Source: Pristiophorus japonicus (lineage: Eukaryota). Taken from it: DNA of 64,000 bases. The stretch spans positions 70,990,001 through 71,054,000 of the forward strand of contig NC_091991.1 in NCBI RefSeq assembly GCF_044704955.1, given 5' to 3'. The notes under the pieces were generated by a model. The model was not told where the DNA came from, did no database searches, and saw nothing but the letters and a program-made list of their open reading frames with translations. The position numbers were made by a program, and so were the translations under genes. This document shows positions 26,886 through 45,694 of this stretch, in pieces (position 1 is the first letter of the stretch; each line of letters opens with the position of its first letter).

Positions 26886-27350
26886 TGTCAGTTGTGGCTC
26901 AGTGGGTAGCATTCTCACCTGAGTCAGAAGGTTGTACATTCAAGTCCCACTCCAGGGACTTGAGCACAAAAAAAAAATCTAGGCCAACAGTGCAGTGCTG
27001 AGGAAGCATTGCACTGTTGGAGTGCCGTCTTTCAGATGAGACATTAAACCAAGGCCCAGTCTGCTCTCTCAAGTGGACATAAAATATCCCATGGCACTAT
27101 TTCAAAGAAGAGCAGGGGAGTTCGCACCGATGTCCTGGCCAATATCTATCGCTCAATCAACATAGCAAAAAAACAGATTATCTGGTCATTATCACATTGC
27201 TGTTTGTGAGAGTTTGCTTGTGCGCCGTTTTAGCTGCAGCATTTCCTACATTACAACAGTCACTACATTCCAAAAGTACTTTACTGGCTGTAAAGCGCTT
27301 TGAGACATCCAGTGGTTGTGAAAGCCGCTATATAAATCAGTTTTTCTTAT
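26886..27350 (+). mobile_element. tRNA-derived SINE (Deu-domain/SacSINE-like)
   Basis: A-box-like TGGCTCAGTGG, B-box-like TTCAAGTCC, central tgccgtctttcagatgagac..taaacc domain; a reverse partial copy lies at 31375-31672. Confidence 0.75.
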
Positions 27351-29470
27351 GTATCTCTCTCTTTTCCCTATACATCTTACTCTCTATCCACAGTATCGCG
27401 CTCTCTCTTTTCCCTATATATCTCATTCTCTCTATCCCCAGTATCTCTCTCTCCTTTCCCTATGTATTTCTCTCTATCCCCAGTATCTAATTCTCTTTAT
27501 CCCCAGTATCTCTATCCTTTCCCTATGTATCTCTCCCTATCCCTAGTATCTCTATCCTTTCCCTATGTTCTCTCCCTATCCCTAGTATCTCTATCCTTTC
27601 CCTATGTTCTCTCCCTATCCCTAGTATCTCTATCCTTTCCCTATGTTCTCTCCATCCCCAGTACCCCGCACTCTCTCCATCCCCAGTACCCCGCACTCTC
27701 TCCATCCCCAGTACCCCGCACTCTCTCCATCCCCAGTACCCCGCACTCTCTCCATCCCCAGTACCCCGCACTCTCTCCATCCCCAGTACCCCGCACTCTC
27801 TCCATCCCCAGTACCCCGCACTCTCTCCATCCCCAGTACCCCGCACTCCCTCCATCCCCAGTACCCCGCACTCCCTCCATCCCTCACATTCTCTCCATGG
27901 TATCTCGCACACTCTCCATCCCCAGTATCTCGCACTTTCTCTCCATCCCCAGTATCTCTATCCTTTCCCTATGTATCACTCACTCTCTTCATCCCCAGTA
28001 TCTCTATCCTTTATCCCCAGTATCTCTATCCTTTCCCTATGTATCACTCACTCTACCCCCAGTATCTCACTCTCTCCACCCCCAGTATCTCTATCCTTTC
28101 CCTATGTATCGCTCAATTTCTCCACCCCCAGTATCTCTCACTCTCTCCACCCCCAGTATCTCTATCCTTTCCCTATGTATCTCACACTCTCTCTATCCCC
28201 AGTATCTCTATCCTTTCCCTATGTATCGCTCACTCTCTCTATCCCCAGTATCTCTATCCTTTCCCTATGTATCTCACAATCTCTCCACCCCCAGTATCTC
28301 TATCCTTTCCCTATGTATCTCACACTCTCTCTATCCCCAGTATCTCTATCCTTTCCCTATGTATCGCTCACTCTCTCCACCCCCAGTATCTCTATCCTTT
28401 CCCTATGTATCTCACACTCTCTCTATCCCCAGTATCTCTATCCTTTCCCTATGTATCGCTCACTCTCTCTATCCCCAGTATCTCTATCCTTTCCCTATGT
28501 ATCTCACAATCTCTATCCTTTCCCTATGTATCTCACACTCTCTCTATCCCCAGTATCTCTATCCTTTCCCTATGTATCTCACTCTCTCTACCCCCAGTAT
28601 CTCTATCCTTTCCCTATGTATCGCTCACTCTCTCTACCCCCACTATCTCTATCCATTCCCTATGTATCTCACACTCTCTCTACCCCAAGTATCGCTATCC
28701 TTTCCCTATGTATCTCACACTCTCTCTATCCCCAGTATCTCTATCCTTTCCCTATGTATCTCACACTCTCTCTATCCCCAGTATCTCTATCCTTTCCCTA
28801 TGTATCGCTCACTCTCTCTACCCCCACTATCGCTATCCTTTCCCTATGTATCTCACACTCTCTATCCTTTCCCTATGTATCTCACACTCTCTCTATCCCC
28901 AGTATCTCTATCCTTTCCCTATGTATCTCACAATCTCTATCCTTTTCCTATGTATCTCACAATCTCTCTATCCCCAGTATCTCTATCCTTTCCCTATGTA
29001 TCTCACAATCTCTATCCTTTCCCTATGTATCTCACACTCTCTCTATCCCCAGTATCTCTATCCTTTCCCTATGTATCTCACACTCTCTCTATCCTTTCCC
29101 TATGTATCTCACACTCTCTCTATCCCCAGTATCTCTATCCTTTCCCTATGTATCTCACAATCTCTATCCTTTCCCTATGTATCTCACACTCTCTCTATCC
29201 CCAGTATCTCTATCCTTTCCCTATGTATCTCACACTCTCTCTATCCTTTCCCTATGTATCTCACACTCTCTCTATCCCCAGTATCTCTATCCTTTCCCTA
29301 TGTATCTCACAATCTCTATCCTTTCCCTATGTATCTCACACTCTCTCTATCCCCAGTATCTCTATCCTTTCCCTATGTATCTCACAATCTCTATCCTTTC
29401 CCTATGTATCTCACACTCTCTCTATCCCCAGTATCTCTATCCTTTCCCTATGTATCTCTCACTCTCTTTT
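27350..29470. repeat. Pyrimidine-rich minisatellite in NDUFA5 intron 1
   Basis: Roughly 30-47-bp units built from ccccagtatctctatcctttccctatgtatctcacactctctctat, plus an embedded 25-bp array ctctctccatccccagtaccccgca (about 27650-27880). Confidence 0.97.
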
Positions 29471-29484
29471 TGACCTCTACTCAC

Positions 29485-29505
29485 TTTTTTCAGGAGTCCA
29501 GCCAT
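29485..29505 (-). CDS. NDUFA5: NDUFA5 exon 1 coding part (MAGLLKK)
   Basis: gcggcaATGGCT Kozak context and GTGAGT donor; the five exons splice to 116 aa, the same length as human. Confidence 0.96.
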
Positions 29506-29935
29506 TGCCGCCGCAGTGCATTGTGGGATGGCCTCCAGGCCGTGTAAAGGAGCGCCGAGCTGTCGCGGTGCCTAGACCTGATGAGCGGAGCTGCGAGCCT
29601 GAGCGCGCTGACGGGCGGACGGGCGGACGGAGGAGCAGCAGGCGCGGAGTGTGTGAGCCCGAGCGGGGCCTGGCCACAGCGTGAGGGGAGGGGGATGGGG
29701 CACAGGTGGGGAGCGCGGCCGGACTGGATTACAGACTGGCGGCGGCTGAGACCCGGCCTGTAATCACTGGGGGCGGGCGGCGCTTGGTATCAGTCCCCGT
29801 GTGTTTAATATGGGATCGTGTGTGAGTTATGGTCTGAGGGGGCGTGACCTGGGTGGGCGGGGCCGGGGTATGGTCAGCCTGTGGGCGTTACCTAGGTGGG
29901 CGGCCCTTGTGAGGGGCGGGGCCGATGGACCAGCT
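29506..29935. promoter_or_regulatory. CpG island, NDUFA5 promoter, possibly bidirectional
   Basis: High GC/CpG content and several GGGCGG (Sp1) boxes immediately upstream of the NDUFA5 ATG. Confidence 0.8.
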
Positions 29936-37103: not shown

Positions 37104-38051
37104 TTAGTTTAACTCCTCCCCAACAGCACTAGCAAACACTCCCCCTAGGACATTGGTTCCGGTCCTGCCCAGGTGCAGACCGTCCGGTTTGTACTGGTCC
37201 CACCTCCCCCAGAACCGGTTCCAATGCCCCAAGAATTTGAATCCCTCCCTGCTGCACCACTGCTCAAGCCATGTATTCATCTGCGCTATCCTGCGATTCC
37301 TACTCTGACTAGCACGTGGCACTGGTAGCAATCCCGAGATTACTACTTTTGAGGTCCTACTTTTTAATTTAGCTCCTAGCTCCTTAAATTCTTTTCGTAG
37401 GACCTCATCCCTTTTTTTACCTATGTCGTTGGTACCAATGTGCACCACGACAACTGGCTGTTCTCCCTCCCATTTCAGAATGTCCTGCACCCGCTCCGAG
37501 ACATCTTTGACCCTTGCACCAGGGAGGCAACATACCATCCTGGAGTCTCGGTTGCGTCCGCAGAAATGCCTATCTATTCCCCTCACCATCGAATCCCCTA
37601 TCACTATCGCGCTCCCAATCTTTTTGCTGCCCTCCTTTGCAGCAGAGCCACCTACGGTGCCATGAACTTGGCTGCTGCTGCCCTCCCCTGATGAGTCATC
37701 CTCCCCAACAGTACCCAAAGCGGTGTATCTGTTTTGCAGGGGGATGACCGCAGGGGACCCCTGCACTATCTTTCTTGCACTGCTCTTCCTGCTGGTCTTC
37801 CATTCCCTATCTGGCTGTGGACCCTTCTCCTGCGGTAAGACCAACTCACTACACGTGATACTCACGTCATTCTCAGCATCGTGGATGCTCCAGAGTGAAT
37901 CCACCCTCAGCTCCAATTCCGCAACGCGGACCGTCAAGAACTCGAGGCGGATACACTTCCCACACACGTAGTGCCCAGGGACACCGGAAGTGTCCCCGAG
38001 TTCCCACATGGTACAGGAGGAGCATATCACATGGCCGAGCTCTCCTGCCAT
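37104..38051 (-). CDS. CR1 ORF1p: CxxC-CxxC zinc finger, coiled coil, SGNH/GDSL esterase
   Basis: CSSC..CGKC, heptad RVAELELRVDSL, IGDSMVR, HIGTND, DGLH; intact 315 aa from an ATG. Confidence 0.9.
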   Translation of the reverse strand: MAGELGHVICSSCTMWELGDTSGVPGHYVCGKCIRLEFLTVRVAELELRVDSLWSIHDAENDVSITCSELVLPQEKGPQPDREWKTSRKSSARKIVQGSPAVIPLQNRYTALGTVGEDDSSGEGSSSQVHGTVGGSAAKEGSKKIGSAIVIGDSMVRGIDRHFCGRNRDSRMVCCLPGARVKDVSERVQDILKWEGEQPVVVVHIGTNDIGKKRDEVLRKEFKELGAKLKSRTSKVVISGLLPVPRASQSRNRRIAQMNTWLEQWCSREGFKFLGHWNRFWGRWDQYKPDGLHLGRTGTNVLGGVFASAVGEELN

Positions 38052-38453
38052 GTCTTAACCTTAGATACCCTTAAATTGGTAATAACAATGTTACAGTTCA
38101 CTTATTGATATAAAAAATAAAAGAAAAGCTACTCACCAATCACCAGCCAATCACTTACCCCATTGGTAGTATATCCTTCCTTAAGTAAGGTGACCAAAAC
38201 TGCACGCAGTACTCCAGGTGCGGCCTCACCAATACCCTGTACAGTTGCAGCAGGACCTCCCTGCTTTTGTACTCCATCCCTCTCGCAATGAAGGCCAACA
38301 TTCCATTTGCCTTCCTGATTACCTGCTGCACCTGCAAGCTAACTTTTTGGGATTCATGCTCAAGGACCCCCAGGTCCCTCTGCACCGCAGCATGTTGTAA
38401 TTTCTCCCCATTCAAATAATATTCCCTTTTACTGTTTTTTTTTCCAAGGTGGA

Positions 38454-39119
38454 TGTTAGCGTTAGTGTTTTCTCTGAAGAATCACTCAACACTCAGGGTC
38501 GGTTCCAATGCTGAAGCAGCTTTATTACGCTCAGCGGGAAGGAAAAACTCAGGACCGTATCCAGGTTTCTCTTCACAGAACAAAGAGTTACATGTACCTT
38601 TATATGTTTTACAACAGTTACAAAACAGCTTACTGCAGTTACACAGCTCATCACGGCTGGACACAAGCCAATCATAACGATTATAGATTACATATGGGTT
38701 TTTTAATCCAATAGAATTCTCCTAGTAACCAGGGAACCATTGTCAATTTGGGTTGATCGATGACTTTATATGTTCTCTCCCTAGTTCTTTCATCTGGGAG
38801 AAATAATTGGTTTGTAGCCTTGTTTACAGCAAATGGTTTCCCTCTTATCTTTCTTCCTGGGGAATTAATTGGTTTATGGCCTTGTTCACAGGAGATGGCT
38901 TCCTTCTTATCTCTGCCTTCCCAGGCATTCCTACAGTGGGCCTCACAGGGTTATTGCTCGGTCAGTGAACGTTCAACAGTTCACAGTTTGACTACCTGAT
39001 TTCCCATAATGCCTGGGCAGCCATTTTATGTGTGTGTCCATTTAAGCTTATGTGAGTTCTAAATATCCAGCAGGTGCCTAATGCCTAAGTCTATATATAT
39101 CTTTCGACTCTCTACAACA
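38454..39119 (-). repeat. 3' LTR (666 bp)
   Basis: Direct repeat of 42560-43225 with only one difference noticed; minus-strand TATAAA 38599-38604 and AATAAA 38521-38526. Confidence 0.95.
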
Positions 39120-39256
39120 ATTCCCCCTTTCGGTAAAGGGACTAGCCCTAGTCCCCTTTTAACCGAAATACTGCCTTTATCTGATATTTGTGCACGGCCC
39201 GGTATTCCTTGCCTCAACGTGCTGGCCAGTCACGCGGTTTCAGGAGTTCCGGTTGC

Positions 39257-40657
39257 TCAAATCAAATTAACAAAGGCTAGCTCCTCCCGTCCCCTTATCA
39301 AACAGACTTGTTTAATATCCAGGGAACGGTGATTGGTCCGTTTCTGCCGTTTGTGGCGCCTGCATACCTGGCAGGCCATCACGCCCCATGTTATTGCTAA
39401 GATTAATTGTATTCCGACCAGTGTGTGTGAAATAATTCGAATCCATGGGTGGATGTTCACATTTATTCCCCAGTCCCAGACCTTTCTCCACCAACTCTGA
39501 CTTTGTAAGTCTACCTCGGTATCTTCTTTGATTTTAGTTTGTAGCTGGTGATAGAGTTTTACAGATTGACCCACTCTGAGCCTCAACTCCCGTAATACTT
39601 CGGTTAGATGTGGGATAGGGACCTGCTCTGGCTCGTCATAATCCTGCAAATGATCATGGAGCTGATCAGTTACTTCAATAACTTCGGACTTCCGGCGCCT
39701 AACCTGGGTGATATGCGCTTGCCCGATCGCGACAGGTCGTAGTGGTGTAAAGCAAAAGTTTGGCTGCGGTATAGGGCACTGCAGGCCATTATACTGGTAT
39801 GAACGCTCAGTAGTAGAGACGCAGTATCTTCCCCTCCCTCCGTAGCCTGCCCTCGCGAAGTGCATGTGTGCGGGCACTATTTCTAGTACACACCCATTGG
39901 TTCGGTTAAACCCGCACTCGTCTAGTTCGCCTCGGCCCACCGGGTGAGGGCATACTGTGATTTCCCCCCTTTGCTTGCAATCTGCTAGGGAAATCCCGGT
40001 AAGTATGTTGTTTCGACGAACGGCAGAGGTGGTGGTTAGGTAGTAGCGTATGGAGACATTTTCCCGTATTACTCCGATATTCTCTAGTTGGTATAAGGGG
40101 AACGGCCCTGAGTCCGGCGTTGCTATGGGGATCAACAGGACTATCCCTATCCCGGTAGTCCTACCCATCTGGCAATCTGGAATTGCGGGGTATACTCGGG
40201 TCAGTCCCTTCAGAGTACAATTATCCAGTGTCCCCCTTTGGTTCGCCAACTGAGCTAAATGTGAACTGTCTATCCAATCGGGTACCTCCCCGCGTTGGAT
40301 CTGGTTGAGGTTGTGGCGGATCTGTCCCACCATCCACAGACCATAAGCATGACAGAGTTGCCCCTGTCTTTGCTTTATTGTATCTTCTTGTTCTCTATCA
40401 ATGAGGTGATTGATGGTTTTAGCGTGAGCTTCCAGGACTGAGATGCCATCCAACTGGATTTCGGCCCCCTCCTTTCCTAGGTTGGCCTGGTCTTCCTGGT
40501 TTTGCTCCACCCTCTCCAATAACCCCTTCATCACCCCTTTAAGCTGTTCTACCCTCTCATTTAGCCCTTGTATGTCTATCGAGTTCACTACGGAGGTTCC
40601 TGTATTGAAAACGGTAGCAACATCATTGCCAAAGAATTTTTTTTTTTTTAAATTGTT
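39257..40657 (-). CDS. Envelope/class I fusion glycoprotein-like open frame, N-terminally truncated (no signal peptide; first ATG at 40531)
   Basis: Fusion-peptide-like NDVATVFNTGTSVVNSIDI, heptad region, Cys-rich domain with N-glycosylation sequons (NCT, NVS, NRT), second heptad, Trp-rich membrane-proximal segment, TM helix, basic tail. Confidence 0.78.
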   Translation of the reverse strand, partial: NNLKKKKFFGNDVATVFNTGTSVVNSIDIQGLNERVEQLKGVMKGLLERVEQNQEDQANLGKEGAEIQLDGISVLEAHAKTINHLIDREQEDTIKQRQGQLCHAYGLWMVGQIRHNLNQIQRGEVPDWIDSSHLAQLANQRGTLDNCTLKGLTRVYPAIPDCQMGRTTGIGIVLLIPIATPDSGPFPLYQLENIGVIRENVSIRYYLTTTSAVRRNNILTGISLADCKQRGEITVCPHPVGRGELDECGFNRTNGCVLEIVPAHMHFARAGYGGRGRYCVSTTERSYQYNGLQCPIPQPNFCFTPLRPVAIGQAHITQVRRRKSEVIEVTDQLHDHLQDYDEPEQVPIPHLTEVLRELRLRVGQSVKLYHQLQTKIKEDTEVDLQSQSWWRKVWDWGINVNIHPWIRIISHTLVGIQLILAITWGVMACQVCRRHKRQKRTNHRSLDIKQVCLIRGREELAFVNLI

Positions 40658-40659
40658 TT

Positions 40660-41830
40660 AAAACAAGACCACACATACAATAGCAATTTTGTTTACTGAA
40701 ATTCAATTCTGTTTTTTTTTTATTTCTCTCTTTCTCCTCGTTATCTTCAAAACCCTCCTGCTTGTTTAGACTGTTCGGGACATTTTGGAAATCTTTTCAA
40801 ACTGCATTGGAACTTTTTCATAATTGAAAATTCGAATCCATGTAGAGTGTTTTTTACTTATTCCAATTTTTTTTTTTCCTCTTCTAATTAAACCAATATC
40901 TTTTTCACAGCAAACATCAACTAGTATTTAGTAAGTTATGTCTTTTTCCATTTAGTCCGTTACATCTTTTTTTTTTTTTTCTTTCTTCAAATTAGGTTTT
41001 GTATTTTACACGGAGGGTTCGTAACTCCATAAAGTTGTTAATTTGTTTACTTTCAAAGTGGCGTCTTTATCTTTTTCTTTTTCTCCATAACTGGAATGGA
41101 GACCAGCTTTGAGAGTTTGAGTGCTGCCTTTCGTTATCTCAAAATGCTCCAGTTTCAAAGCCGTTACTAAAGCTTGCTGTTTTTTAACATTTTCCAAAAG
41201 TTCCTTTTACACCTTCGCAGATAGCTCGCCACTTGCCCAGGAGTTTGACCTGATCAGATTTAATTTAATCTTTTTTTTTTTAAATCCACCTCAGTATTTC
41301 CTGTGCCTTCTCTGAATATCTCAAAATCCCAATTCAAACTTTGTAATTTCAATCTTTATTTGAAACTTTTTTTTTTAGAAGCTCTTTTTTTTTTTAAAGC
41401 ATTCTTTATCTCATTCCGAGACTAAATTTATGTCTTTCAACCCAATCAATCATTGCATGTTTTCTTTCGGCAAGTAAGTGAGCATGTCAAATAAATATTT
41501 TGCTCAACAAACCTATTCTTTATTTGTTTATTCTCCTAGCTCCGTAACTTATCATCCGAATAAATCCACACCTGCGTTTCTAACTTAAATGTCTTAAAAC
41601 TTCCCACATACAGGACAACATTACAAAGGGTTTAAAAAAAAAGACTTTCACTCTGTTTCTAAAATAAACAGACACTTGCATTCCTCTTCCAACCAGGCTT
41701 TCGGAACATGAAAACATAAAACAAAAATTCATTCTGCAGTCAAAAATCACACAGACACTTCTCACTCAACGATCAGACATTTACAACAGTCTCTCTTCTT
41801 GTTTTGGCCGGCTCTATTTTTGGATCCATG
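40660..41830 (-). pseudogene. Heavily degraded gag-like coiled-coil region
   Basis: Short remnants (KPFVMLSCMWEVL; ENVKKQQALVTALK) between the PBS and env; many stops and homopolymer runs. Confidence 0.45.
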
Positions 41831-42559
41831 ACCTTTCAGGGAATTCGTAGTTTTATCTAAATAATTCCTCACATAACTAATTCCTGAGGATTCCACCCTG
41901 CTTTAATCATTTTTTCAATTAGCTTCTTTTGTTTTTCCGCCAGGTGGCGGGTAAGCGACCCTTCTGGTCCCCACTCGAGTTTACTTGTTTTCATGGCCAT
42001 TCCTGGGTAGGACTGGTATCGTTAGGAATCTACTCTCAGCGGTCCGCTTTCTTTCTAGCGCGACTTGTAGTAAACTGTCTCTTGGCTACTGTCAGGTCAC
42101 AAGTTCTGCTGTTACACAAACTTATACAATTCTTAAAAACGCGTTTAAGCAATTCCCGCAGTGCTCTACGTATCCTTAACGACTACCTACCACCGCTCAG
42201 CCCGTTGGTCCGACCCTGTTCACAGGTTTGGATTCCGTTAGCCGCTGTACACCGCTTGGTTCTATCCCGGGGTATTTCAAATTACACTACTGGGTCCGGA
42301 AGATGTCTCTCGGTATCACGATCCCACGGTCTAAGTGTGTTCCCTACGCCTACTTGGTTCCTGGCCGTCACGTGGGACAAAAGTCCTCTTAATTCAGGCT
42401 CAGGCTAGGCGTTTGAGATATTAGACCGTCTCCTCATGTCGATCAACCAGCTTCCACCTTCCGCACCCTTTATACTTAAAAATTGTTTTTTATACTCACC
42501 CGGGTTTTTTTTTTCCAAGGGCGTCCAGCGACTCCGGGAAATCCCGTCGACTACGCCAT

Positions 42560-43225
42560 TGTTAGCGTTAGTGTTTTCTCTGAAGAATCACTCAACACTC
42601 AGGGTCGGTTCCAATGCTGAAGCAGCTTTATTACGCTCAGCGGGAAGGAAAAACTCAGGACCGTATCCAGGTTTCTCTTCACAGAACAAAGAGTTACATG
42701 TACCTTTATATGTTTTACAACAGTTACAAAACAGCTTACTGCAGTTACACAGCTCATCACGGCTGGACACAAGCCAATCATAACGATTATAGATTACATA
42801 TGGGTTTTTTAATCCAATAGAATTCTCCTAGTAACCAGGGAACCATTGTCAATTTGGGTTGATCGATGACTTTATATGTTCTCTCCCTAGTTCTTTCATC
42901 TGGGAGAAATAATTGGTTTGTAGCCTTGTTCACAGCAAATGGTTTCCCTCTTATCTTTCTTCCTGGGGAATTAATTGGTTTATGGCCTTGTTCACAGGAG
43001 ATGGCTTCCTTCTTATCTCTGCCTTCCCAGGCATTCCTACAGTGGGCCTCACAGGGTTATTGCTCGGTCAGTGAACGTTCAACAGTTCACAGTTTGACTA
43101 CCTGATTTCCCATAATGCCTGGGCAGCCATTTTATGTGTGTGTCCATTTAAGCTTATGTGAGTTCTAAATATCCAGCAGGTGCCTAATGCCTAAGTCTAT
43201 ATATATCTTTCGACTCTCTACAACA
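42560..43225 (-). repeat. 5' LTR (666 bp)
   Basis: Followed on the minus strand by PBS TGGCGTAGTCGACGGGATT and a donor CGG|GTGAGT at 42494-42499. Confidence 0.95.
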
Positions 43226-45694
43226 GTGGATGACCTCACATTTTCCAACATTGTATTCCATCTGCCAAACCTTAGCCCATTCGCTTAACCCAACTAAATC
43301 TCTTTGCAGCCTCTCTGTGTCCTCTACACAACCCGCTTTCCCACTAATCTTTGTGTCATCTGCAAATTTTGTTACACTACACTCTGTCCCCACTTCCAGG
43401 TCATCTATGTATATTGTAAACAGTTGTGGTCCCAGCACCGATCCCTGTGGCACACCACTAACCACCGATTTCCAACCCGAAAAGGACCCATTTATCCCGA
43501 CTCTCTGCTTTCTGTTAGCCAGCCAATTATCGATCCATGCTAATACATATCCTCTGACTCCGCGTACCTTTATCTTCTGCAGTAACCTTTTGTGTGGCAC
43601 CTTATCGAAAGCCTTTTGGAAATCTAAATACACCACATCCATCGGTACACCTCTATCCACCATGCTCATTATATCCTCAAAGAATTCCAGTAAATTAGTT
43701 AAACATGATTTCCCCTTCATGAATCCATGTTGCGTCTGCTTGATTGCACTATTCCTATCTAGCTGTCCCGCTATTTCTTCCTTAATGATAGCTTCAAGCA
43801 TTTTCCCCACTACAGATGTTAAACTAACTGGCCTATAGTTACCTGCCTTTTTGTCTGCCCCCTTTTTTAAACAGAGGCGTTACATTAGCTGCTTTCCAAT
43901 CCGCTGATACCTCCCCAGAGTCCAGAGAATTTTGGTAGATTATAACGAATGCATCTGCTATAACTTCCGCCATCTCTTTTAATACCCTGGGATGCATTTC
44001 ATCAGGACCAGGGGACTTGTCTACCTTGAGTCCCATTAGCCTGTCCAGCACTACCTCCCTAATGATAGTGATTGTCTCAAGGTCCTCCCTGCCCACATTC
44101 CCGTGACCAGCAATTTTTGGCATGGTTTTTGTGTCTTCCACTGTGAAGACCGAAGCAAAATAATTGTTTAAGGTCTCAGCCATTTCCACATTTCCCATTA
44201 TTAAATCCCCCTTCTCATCTTCTAAGGGACCAACATTTACTTTAGTCACTCTCTTCCGTTTTATATATCGGTAAAAGCTTTTACTATCTGTTTTTATGTT
44301 TTGCGCAAGTTTACTTTCGTAATCTATCTTTCCTTTCTTTATTGCTTTCTTAGTCATTCTTTGCTGTCGTTTAAAATTTTCCCAATCTTCTAGTTTCCCA
44401 CTAACCTTGGCCACCTTATACGCTTTTAATTTGATACTCCTTTATTTCCTTGGTTATCCACGGCTAGTTATCCCTTCTCTTACCGCCCTTCTTTTTCACT
44501 GGAATATATTTTTGTTGAGCACTATACAAGAGTTCCTTAAAAGTCCTCCACTGTTCCTCAATTGTGCCACCGTTTAGTCTGTGTTCCCAGTCTACTTTAG
44601 CTAACTCTGCCCTCATCCCACTGTAGTCCCCTTTGTTTAAGCATAGTACGCTCGTTTGAGACACTACTTCCTCACCCTCAATCTGTATTACAAATTCAAC
44701 CATACTGTGATCACTCATTCCGAGAGGATCTTTTACTAGAAGATTGTTTATTATTCCTGTCACATTACACAGGACCAGATCTAAGATAGCTTGCTCCATT
44801 GTAGGTTCTGTAACATACTGTTCTAAGAAACAATCCCGTATGCATTCTATGAATTCCTCCTCCAGGCTACCCCATGCGATTTGATTTGACCAATCGATAT
44901 GTAGGTTAAAATCCCCCATGATTACTGCCGTTCCTTTTTCACATGCCTCCATTATTCCTTTGATTATTGTCCGCCCCACCATGAAGTTATTATTTGTGGG
45001 CCTATAAACTACGCCCACCAGTGACTTTTTCCCCTTACTATCTCTAATCTCCACCCACAATGATTCAACATTTTGTTCATTAGAGCCAATATCATCTCTC
45101 ACAACTGCCCTGATATCATCCTTTATTAACAGAGCTACCCCACCTCCTTTCTCTTCTTGTCTATCCTTCCGAATTGTCAGATACCCCTGTATGTTTAATT
45201 CCCAGTCTTGGCCACCTGCAACCACGTTTCTGTAATGGCCACCAAATCATACCCATTTGTAATGATTTGTGCCGTCAACTCATTTATTTTATTTCGAATG
45301 CTGCGTGCGTTTAGGTAGAGTGTTATAATACTAGTTTTTGAACCATGATTTTTAGTTTTGACCCCTCCTGCAGCCCCTTTATATTCATACATATTGTCCC
45401 TTCCTATCACTTTGTGCTACTCTGCTCTGTTGCCTCCTGCCTTTTGCATTCTTTCTTGGGGTCCTGTTCATCTGCGCTCTCACCCACTCTAACTAGCTCA
45501 GAGCCCTCTACTGGGTTCCGAATACTCCTCGCATTGAGGCATCGAGCTTTCAAGCTTGCCTTTTTATTATACTTTGACCCTTTAGAATTTTGCTGTACAG
45601 TGGCCTTTTTTGTTTTTTGCCTTGGGTTTCTCTGCCCTCCACTTTTACTCATCTCCTTTCTGTCTTTTGCTTCTGTCTCCATTTTGTTTCCCTC

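Follow-up and report, generated by a model that had tools for sequence, protein, structure and literature searches.

How does a retroelement without a polymerase gene come to carry an uninterrupted envelope frame? The question is posed by a long terminal repeat (LTR) element at positions 38454-43225 of a 64,000-nt stretch of the genome of the shark Pristiophorus japonicus (NCBI RefSeq assembly GCF_044704955.1, contig NC_091991.1, positions 70,990,001 to 71,054,000; this whole stretch is called the window below). An earlier note, made from the letters of the window alone, had seen in this element a very young satellite with an intact env, mobilised in trans within a split system in which a helper retroelement contributes gag and pol and the satellite contributes env. 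The results described here point to another explanation: the element is very probably a further-deleted copy of a long-lived endogenous retrovirus (ERV) lineage that lacks pol, is dead in env, and is likely copied in trans by complete proviruses. Copying in trans is considered likely because a complete partner with the same type of LTR and primer-binding site (PBS) exists in the genome.

All structural features reported for the element were found again, that is, the length of 4.77 kb, the 666-bp LTRs with one difference (a single mismatch, 38825/42931), a 5-bp target-site duplication (TSD), the PBS, a polypurine tract (PPT) and a splice donor after the PBS, and the absence of reverse transcriptase (RT), RNase H and integrase from the element was confirmed. 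At the shark rate of 2.2e-10 per site per year assumed in PMC4422223, one difference in 666 bp translates into an age of about 3.4 million years (My; calculated by hand, with a Poisson range of about 0.1-19 My), and the element can thus be called very young in relative terms only. The stop-free frame of 466 codons (39257-40657, minus strand) is uninterrupted as described, but does not amount to an intact env. An A-rich tract supplies its first 10 codons, and the env portion starts just past the cleavage site; the frame has neither a start nor a signal peptide because a deletion joined the ten tract codons onto env past this site. About 1.48 kb of additional sequence was present at 40627/40626 in all 20 nearest copies fetched, and the sequence on either side of the deletion is a 99% match to the family's 6.25-kb pol-less form. 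The deleted stretch comprised the end of the tract, the remnant of a small membrane-protein open reading frame (ORF), the env acceptor, the ATG, the signal peptide, the N-terminal subunit and the RxKR site. The deletion junction has one match in the 5.9-Gb genome, its own, and was not among the joints listed for four DNA-type runs (42 further joints lie beyond that listing). Thus, copies with the same 4.77-kb structure at other loci, which the earlier note had anticipated, were not found. A genome search with env DNA had 2,484 first-look candidates, and the top 40 were at about 100%. The loss of 1.48 kb may have occurred either during reverse transcription or after insertion. The window locus is a single, further-deleted copy of the pol-less lineage, and, judging from its sequence, no Env at all is to be expected from it, since the deletion took the acceptor, the start and the signal peptide.

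The 6.25-kb pol-less form is present in roughly 1,000-2,500 copies. The LTR-PBS junction has 579 exact genome matches and the gag/tract junction 902 (one mismatch allowed), and an env motif occurs 1,871 times in the genome. When copies were picked by the PBS alone, 39 of 40 had the pol-less layout and one had pol; the layout is also shared by all 20 nearest copies. The pol-less copies have distinct flanks and TSDs of their own at hundreds of loci and thus represent many independent insertions of one defective structure, which corroborates the proposal that pol and gag were lost before the insertion in the window. In these satellites, gag is cut at codon 41-83, pol is absent and none of the 112 copies read has an unbroken env, while the cis parts are kept, namely, the LTRs, the tRNA-Ser PBS, the leader, the first gag codons, the env region and the PPT. 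TSDs were surveyed in 88 copies with resolved ends. Among the pol-less copies (n = 54), 24 TSDs had 5 bp and 22 had 4 bp, one was ambiguous and seven copies had none; the pol-bearing chimeras described below (n = 29) had 21 TSDs of 5 bp and eight of 4 bp, and the complete copies (n = 5) four of 5 bp, with one copy lacking a TSD. The mixture of 4 and 5 bp could reflect either one integrase with two spacings or several helpers. Contigs of a second organism (one study, short pieces, at least 85% likeness) fall into each of the 30 bins that span the pol-less internal region, tract included, which hints weakly at a pol-less lineage older than one species.

Complete proviruses are rare. The continued gag start has 175 genome matches (one mismatch allowed), 15 of them exact; all 11 exact loci fetched are complete proviruses, and 15 of the 16 one-mismatch loci fetched are older tract-bearing copies. 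Of 39 copies fetched by way of pol, 31 were about 8.8 kb long and pol-bearing but gag-less, and eight were complete copies of 9.4 kb; a gag-start fetch of 20 copies added five more complete-type or older copies less one (four young, one older). By the junction counts, the helpers make up about 1-2% of the family. The complete set considered here has 12 members, that is, 11 exact gag-start copies (of the 15 in the genome) and one older copy. These proviruses are 9.4 kb long, contain gag, pol and env, and have LTRs and PBS of the same type as the satellites (92-97% for the LTR); hence, the postulated autonomous partner sharing LTR and PBS exists. Env is open in eight of the 12 copies and all three genes are open in five, and LTR pairs differ at 0, 1, 3, 6 and 15 positions. 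The Gag has about 465 amino acids (aa) with two zinc knuckles, and the Pol, of about 1,180 aa, has two RNase H-like domains and an integrase. The Env of 707 aa is F-like with a signal peptide, an RxKR site, a coiled coil and a transmembrane segment, a complement found in the complete copies only. An in-frame TGA follows gag in 11 of the 12 copies, and gag and pol are otherwise joined; a single frame for gag and pol, interrupted by one stop codon, is a feature of epsilon-like class I elements. A 66-codon ORF with one hydrophobic segment, possibly an accessory membrane protein, lies between pol and env and is conserved in complete and chimeric copies; the satellites retain its last 37-50 codons behind an ATG (for example, L031:6493-6606), and in the window it is deleted.

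The 8.8-kb class (L072, L091-L123), which is also young, joins a satellite 5' half and the tract to pol from the protease end on. Its members are gag-less and share an env deletion near codon 114, and seven of 33 have an open pol frame longer than 1,000 codons. Recombination between a satellite and a helper probably gave rise to this class, which would itself be amplifying.

Env was open from the first ATG in none of the 74 pol-less copies of a first set (one locus without env was dropped from it) and in none of the 33 gag-less, pol-bearing copies. A second set was composed of 40 loci that lack the common break, 38 of which are pol-less; with the two others set aside, env was open in none of the 38. 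The breaks are mostly shared within lineages and lie within the first 115 codons. A break near codon 75 is found in 67 of 73 first-set copies and has 1,004 genome matches, and a break near codon 114 is found in all 33 pol-bearing chimeras; the second set has a stop in the signal peptide (27 copies), a shift near codon 101 (six), a break near codon 75 (four) or a truncation (one). The part of env that remains in the window is open in all 20 nearest copies, in 29 of 33 chimeras, in 14 of 39 copies picked by the PBS and in two of 14 older copies. Env variants private to single copies are neutral, with a ratio of nonsynonymous to synonymous polymorphism (pN/pS) of 1.05 in the first set (232 nonsynonymous, 93 synonymous; one tandem neighbour dropped) and 1.07 in the second (one truncated copy dropped), and controls in shifted frames had overall values of 1.1-1.5 for the larger pol-less sets. 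Shared variants that are also present in helpers have a pN/pS of 0.18. A neutrally evolving env with stops in sister copies, the outcome that the earlier note had set against its own proposal, is thus seen for the private changes and the breaks, but not for the shared variants, which are constrained.

The distribution of divergence along env suggests where this constraint comes from. A young satellite and a young helper differ at 8.7% in codons 1-100 and at 0.3-3.1% beyond, whereas a young and an older satellite differ at 1.3% in codons 1-100 and then at 4-10%. All four gametes were observed at five of 40 sites in codons 1-100 and at 125 of 192 sites in codons 101-700. In leader and env trees (thinned, 73 rows) young helpers are nested among satellites, and for env a split of helpers from satellites was rejected (approximately unbiased test, p-AU 6e-8; thinned, 34 rows). 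Taken together, the 3' part of env is likely open because it was recently swapped in from a helper, and recombination explains much of the constraint in shared variants. The following chain of events would account for these patterns. Helper Gag and Pol would package, reverse-transcribe and integrate satellite RNA by way of its LTRs, PBS, leader and PPT. Satellite RNA would be packaged together with helper RNA, and the two would recombine during reverse transcription, of which the mosaic sequences are the observed trace. Template switches would renew the LTR and the env downstream of the tract; such a refreshed env would therefore show an open 3' frame and a purifying signal in shared variants. 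The 5' end of env, next to the non-homologous tract, would rarely be replaced, so that the lineage-wide breaks observed there persist. The window copy would afterwards have lost its 1.48 kb. Selection for the loss of env was considered and is needless as an explanation, because linkage of the 5' end of env to the tract boundary accounts for the 5' breaks.

Several observations weigh against this reading. Shared variants found in satellites only (in at least four copies) have a pN/pS of 0.36 (39 nonsynonymous, 46 synonymous, p 2e-6), and inside the lineage sharing the signal-peptide stop the values are 0.31-0.43; among 38 older pol-less copies there is one with 708 codons open from an ATG past that stop; and the 112 pol-less copies read are a sample of more than 1,000, in which those picked without bias come mostly from a single chromosome. 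The low satellite-only values are the main result against the reading, and are ascribed here to donating helpers that would be unsampled or extinct. They could also mean that the body of env is under the satellites' own selection, either for a signal-less Env, made from a downstream start or by alternative splicing, or as an RNA element acting in cis in packaging or export. For this explanation speak, besides the satellite-only values, the 5' clustering of the breaks above a 3' part that is open in the nearest copies and most chimeras, the retention of env sequence in every lineage, and the suggestion, made for other ERV pairs in PMC10924933, that flanking gag and env pieces act in cis. However, the 3' part is mostly closed in PBS-picked and older copies, lineage-shared shifts occur in it as well, and no Rfam family was matched. 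Moreover, the step in divergence at codon 100 is indicative of exchange, and pN/pS is as low downstream of the shared frameshift (0.46) as in the transmembrane part (0.34; variants in at least four copies), as import predicts. Own selection on the env body therefore appears unlikely, and it is equally doubtful that the pol-less lineage outlived several helper generations with a signal-less F-type Env product, or env RNA in cis, favouring its packaging or spread; in that case each wave would have lost the front of env alone and kept a long open frame.

Far less probable is the split system, in which satellites would give working Env to a gag-pol helper without env. Pol-less, env-bearing copies and a pol-bearing partner do coexist, and the gag-less, pol-bearing class shows that complementary defective forms occur within the family. 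Nevertheless, not one of the 112 pol-less copies has an env open from its start, most complete proviruses have an open env of their own, acceptor, start and signal peptide are missing from the copy in the window, private changes are neutral, and the exact structure of the window is single-copy. The satellite, likely mobilised in trans, thus survives from the original proposal, and its env cargo does not. Least probable of all, and close to negligible, is the insertion of a complete provirus in the window that lost gag and pol later. The 4.77-kb structure is single-copy, and its last deletion may thus have followed insertion, but the gag/tract junction is common to 902 loci, and the window resembles the 6.25-kb pol-less form on both sides of the deletion.

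The tract that takes the place of gag and pol had been described as a gag-like region full of stops. This holds for about 41 codons; the remainder has no detectable homology to the gag of the family. Satellites and helpers agree over 41 gag codons, a stretch that reaches about 83 codons in older lineages; the agreement resumes just past the end of pol. The tract between has an A content of 39-40%. Its alignment to helper gag-protease scored 208 (shuffles 219 +/- 21), a Gag profile built from eight sequences gave at most 4.1 bits (shuffles -0.7), Pfam gave no match in six frames, and nhmmer found no match to older gag-pol DNA; hypermutated gag was therefore ruled out. A genome search with the tract returned tract-like matches only (best 40 of 2632 candidates). 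Older lineages carry versions of the tract down to about 70-80% identity, and therefore the pol-less line is long-lived.

The characterisation of the env as F-like was supported by the fold of the full family Env; the frame in the window itself has no significant Pfam or PDB sequence match, and Pfam also gave none for a 567-codon frame of a longer copy. Modelled with AlphaFold (mean pLDDT 65, pTM 0.40), the full Env matched paramyxovirus and pneumovirus F proteins in the PDB (best E 7.8e-10, template modelling score 0.31 by query). Among viral models the Env of walleye epidermal hyperplasia virus 1 (WEHV-1) was best (E 2.5e-14), with walleye dermal sarcoma virus (WDSV) at rank 8, and an Atlas feature search with Env pointed to fusion glycoproteins at a low recognition value. 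Named relatives of the Env come from five shark species (46-92% identity) and from frogs (about 20%). Among solved structures the Pol is closest to RT of the murine leukaemia virus (MLV) type, with 405 bits to the RT of MLV and xenotropic MLV-related virus (XMRV), 205 to foamy virus and 204 to Ty3. An errantivirus, that is, a Ty3/gypsy element with an F-type env, was rejected on these Pol scores. In an RT tree (43 rows, midpoint root, a quick tree without WDSV, WEHV and lokiretrovirus rows) the Pol falls outside the gamma clade, in a group with ERVs of sharks, teleosts, frogs and coelacanths; IMG/VR had no RT relative. Judged from these comparisons, the family fits an epsilon-like class I ERV.

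F-like Envs have been described for foamy viruses (PMC11468914) and errantiviruses (10.1101/2023.10.26.564294), and the foamy virus paper puts the orthoretrovirus Env in a different subclass. Modelling of the epsilonretrovirus surface subunit was unsuccessful in 10.1101/2021.11.05.467493, epsilonretroviruses are unmentioned in the available text of Viro3D (PMC12583693), and no paper stating an F-like fold for their Env was found in a literature search whose coverage excludes most subscription journals. The predicted paramyxovirus F fold of a class I-like ERV Env, closest to that of the walleye epsilonretroviruses, may thus interest structural virologists.

The coordinates of the element and its surroundings are given in Table 1. 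Judging from a neighbouring esterase-type ORF1, the interrupted long interspersed nuclear element (LINE) would be of the CR1 type. The window is dense in LINE fragments, among them an open 316-codon esterase-type ORF1 at 37104-38054 (Lipase_GDSL_2, E 8e-13), and contains a pyrimidine-rich minisatellite with units of 25, 29 and 46 bases at 27350-29540. A tRNA gene search across the window found none. The tRNA-Ser 3' motif has 1,067 genome matches, with long tandem arrays (period about 1.95 kb) at G000:C23, about 18.57-20.47 Mb.

Table 1. Features of the LTR element and its insertion site (window positions).
Feature	Position	Strand	Remarks
Whole element	38454-43225	minus	4772 bp
5' LTR	42560..43225	minus	666 bp, TG...CA
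3' LTR	38454..39119	minus	666 bp, TG...CA
PBS	42542..42559	minus	directly after 5' LTR; complementary to host tRNA-Ser(AGA) at 16/18 bases (by-eye comparison)
Major splice donor	42494..42502	minus	CGG/GTGAGT, GT at 42499; consensus match, predicted
gag remnant	41878..42000	minus	first 41 codons; protein 95% identical to complete provirus
AT-rich, A-run-rich tract in place of gag-pol	40627..41877	minus	shortened here by deletion
Private deletion junction, about 1.48 kb	40626..40627		2-base microhomology
3' two thirds of env	39257..40626	minus	fusion subunit with heptad repeats, Cys-rich domain, transmembrane anchor; no start or signal peptide
PPT	39121..39131	minus	directly before 3' LTR
TSD GTGGA, left	38449..38453	plus	
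TSD GTGGA, right	43226..43230	plus	
Host LINE ORF2 (RT domain), split by element	43226..43879	minus	RVT_1 E 1.8e-30; frame resumes left of 38454

The arrangement has close parallels in mammals. In cattle, the D and C types of ERVK[2-1-LTR] form the same kind of pair, for which ETn/MusD and recKoRV/KoRV-A were named as parallels, including linkage at the boundary (PMC10924933). As in the shark family, the defective cattle morph (6-7 kb) outnumbers the competent one (9-10 kb), the D type has a swapped central segment, keeps LTRs and pieces of gag and env and has no functional genes, and the flanks recombine with linkage near the boundary. The cattle pair is betaretrovirus-like, whereas the shark family is class I-like with an F-type Env, and the competent share is about 15% in cattle versus about 1-2% in the shark by junction counts. 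Unlike the cattle pair, the shark family has several satellite lineages that followed one another, with identities as low as about 70-80%, and also a gag-less, pol-bearing class; on the other hand, de novo mobilisation was demonstrated in cattle, whereas in the shark it is deduced from the copies. According to the same source, ETn/MusD of the mouse and recKoRV/KoRV-A of the koala also combine a trans-complemented morph and a replaced centre with common LTRs, although ETn, unlike the shark satellites, retains the ends of gag and pol. In those pairs the replaced piece is called an old retroelement, whereas the shark tract matches neither the gag-pol of its family nor Pfam.

In WEHV-1, WDSV and the clade Mu ERVs, including CmiERV II/III of the elephant shark, gag and pol are also joined by an in-frame stop. 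Epsilon-related ERVs are known from sharks (PMC4422223, PMC6001957). Differences are found in the Env, with 707 aa in the shark family versus 1,160-1,320 in epsilonretroviruses, and in age, as the CmiERVs were dated to more than 50 My, in contrast to the many identical LTR pairs observed here. Lokiretroviruses share with the complete shark copies an F-like Env with signal peptide, RxKR, coiled coil and transmembrane segment, as well as a dual RNase H (PMC7947760); however, they were reported as sister to all retroviruses, cartilaginous fish are not among the hosts in the available text, and the shark Pol, by its bit scores and in a tree lacking a lokiretrovirus row, fits class I better. The family may be listed in the supplements of PMC10435555 and PMC7947760. 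A literature search for non-autonomous ERVs in elasmobranchs returned general reviews only.

The family is thus a shark counterpart of ETn/MusD, recKoRV and the cattle D/C pairs, and not a split env/gag-pol system. The locus in the window is a dead deletion copy, and the split system is absent as proposed. When a defective copy shows an open env frame, the frame may be a fresh import from a helper and can therefore be misleading. The family offers a clean non-mammalian case in which a defective ERV morph outnumbers its helper, with layered waves and a visible recombination gradient, and it could serve to test the proposal of PMC10924933 that passengers of this kind bring about the extinction of ERV clades.

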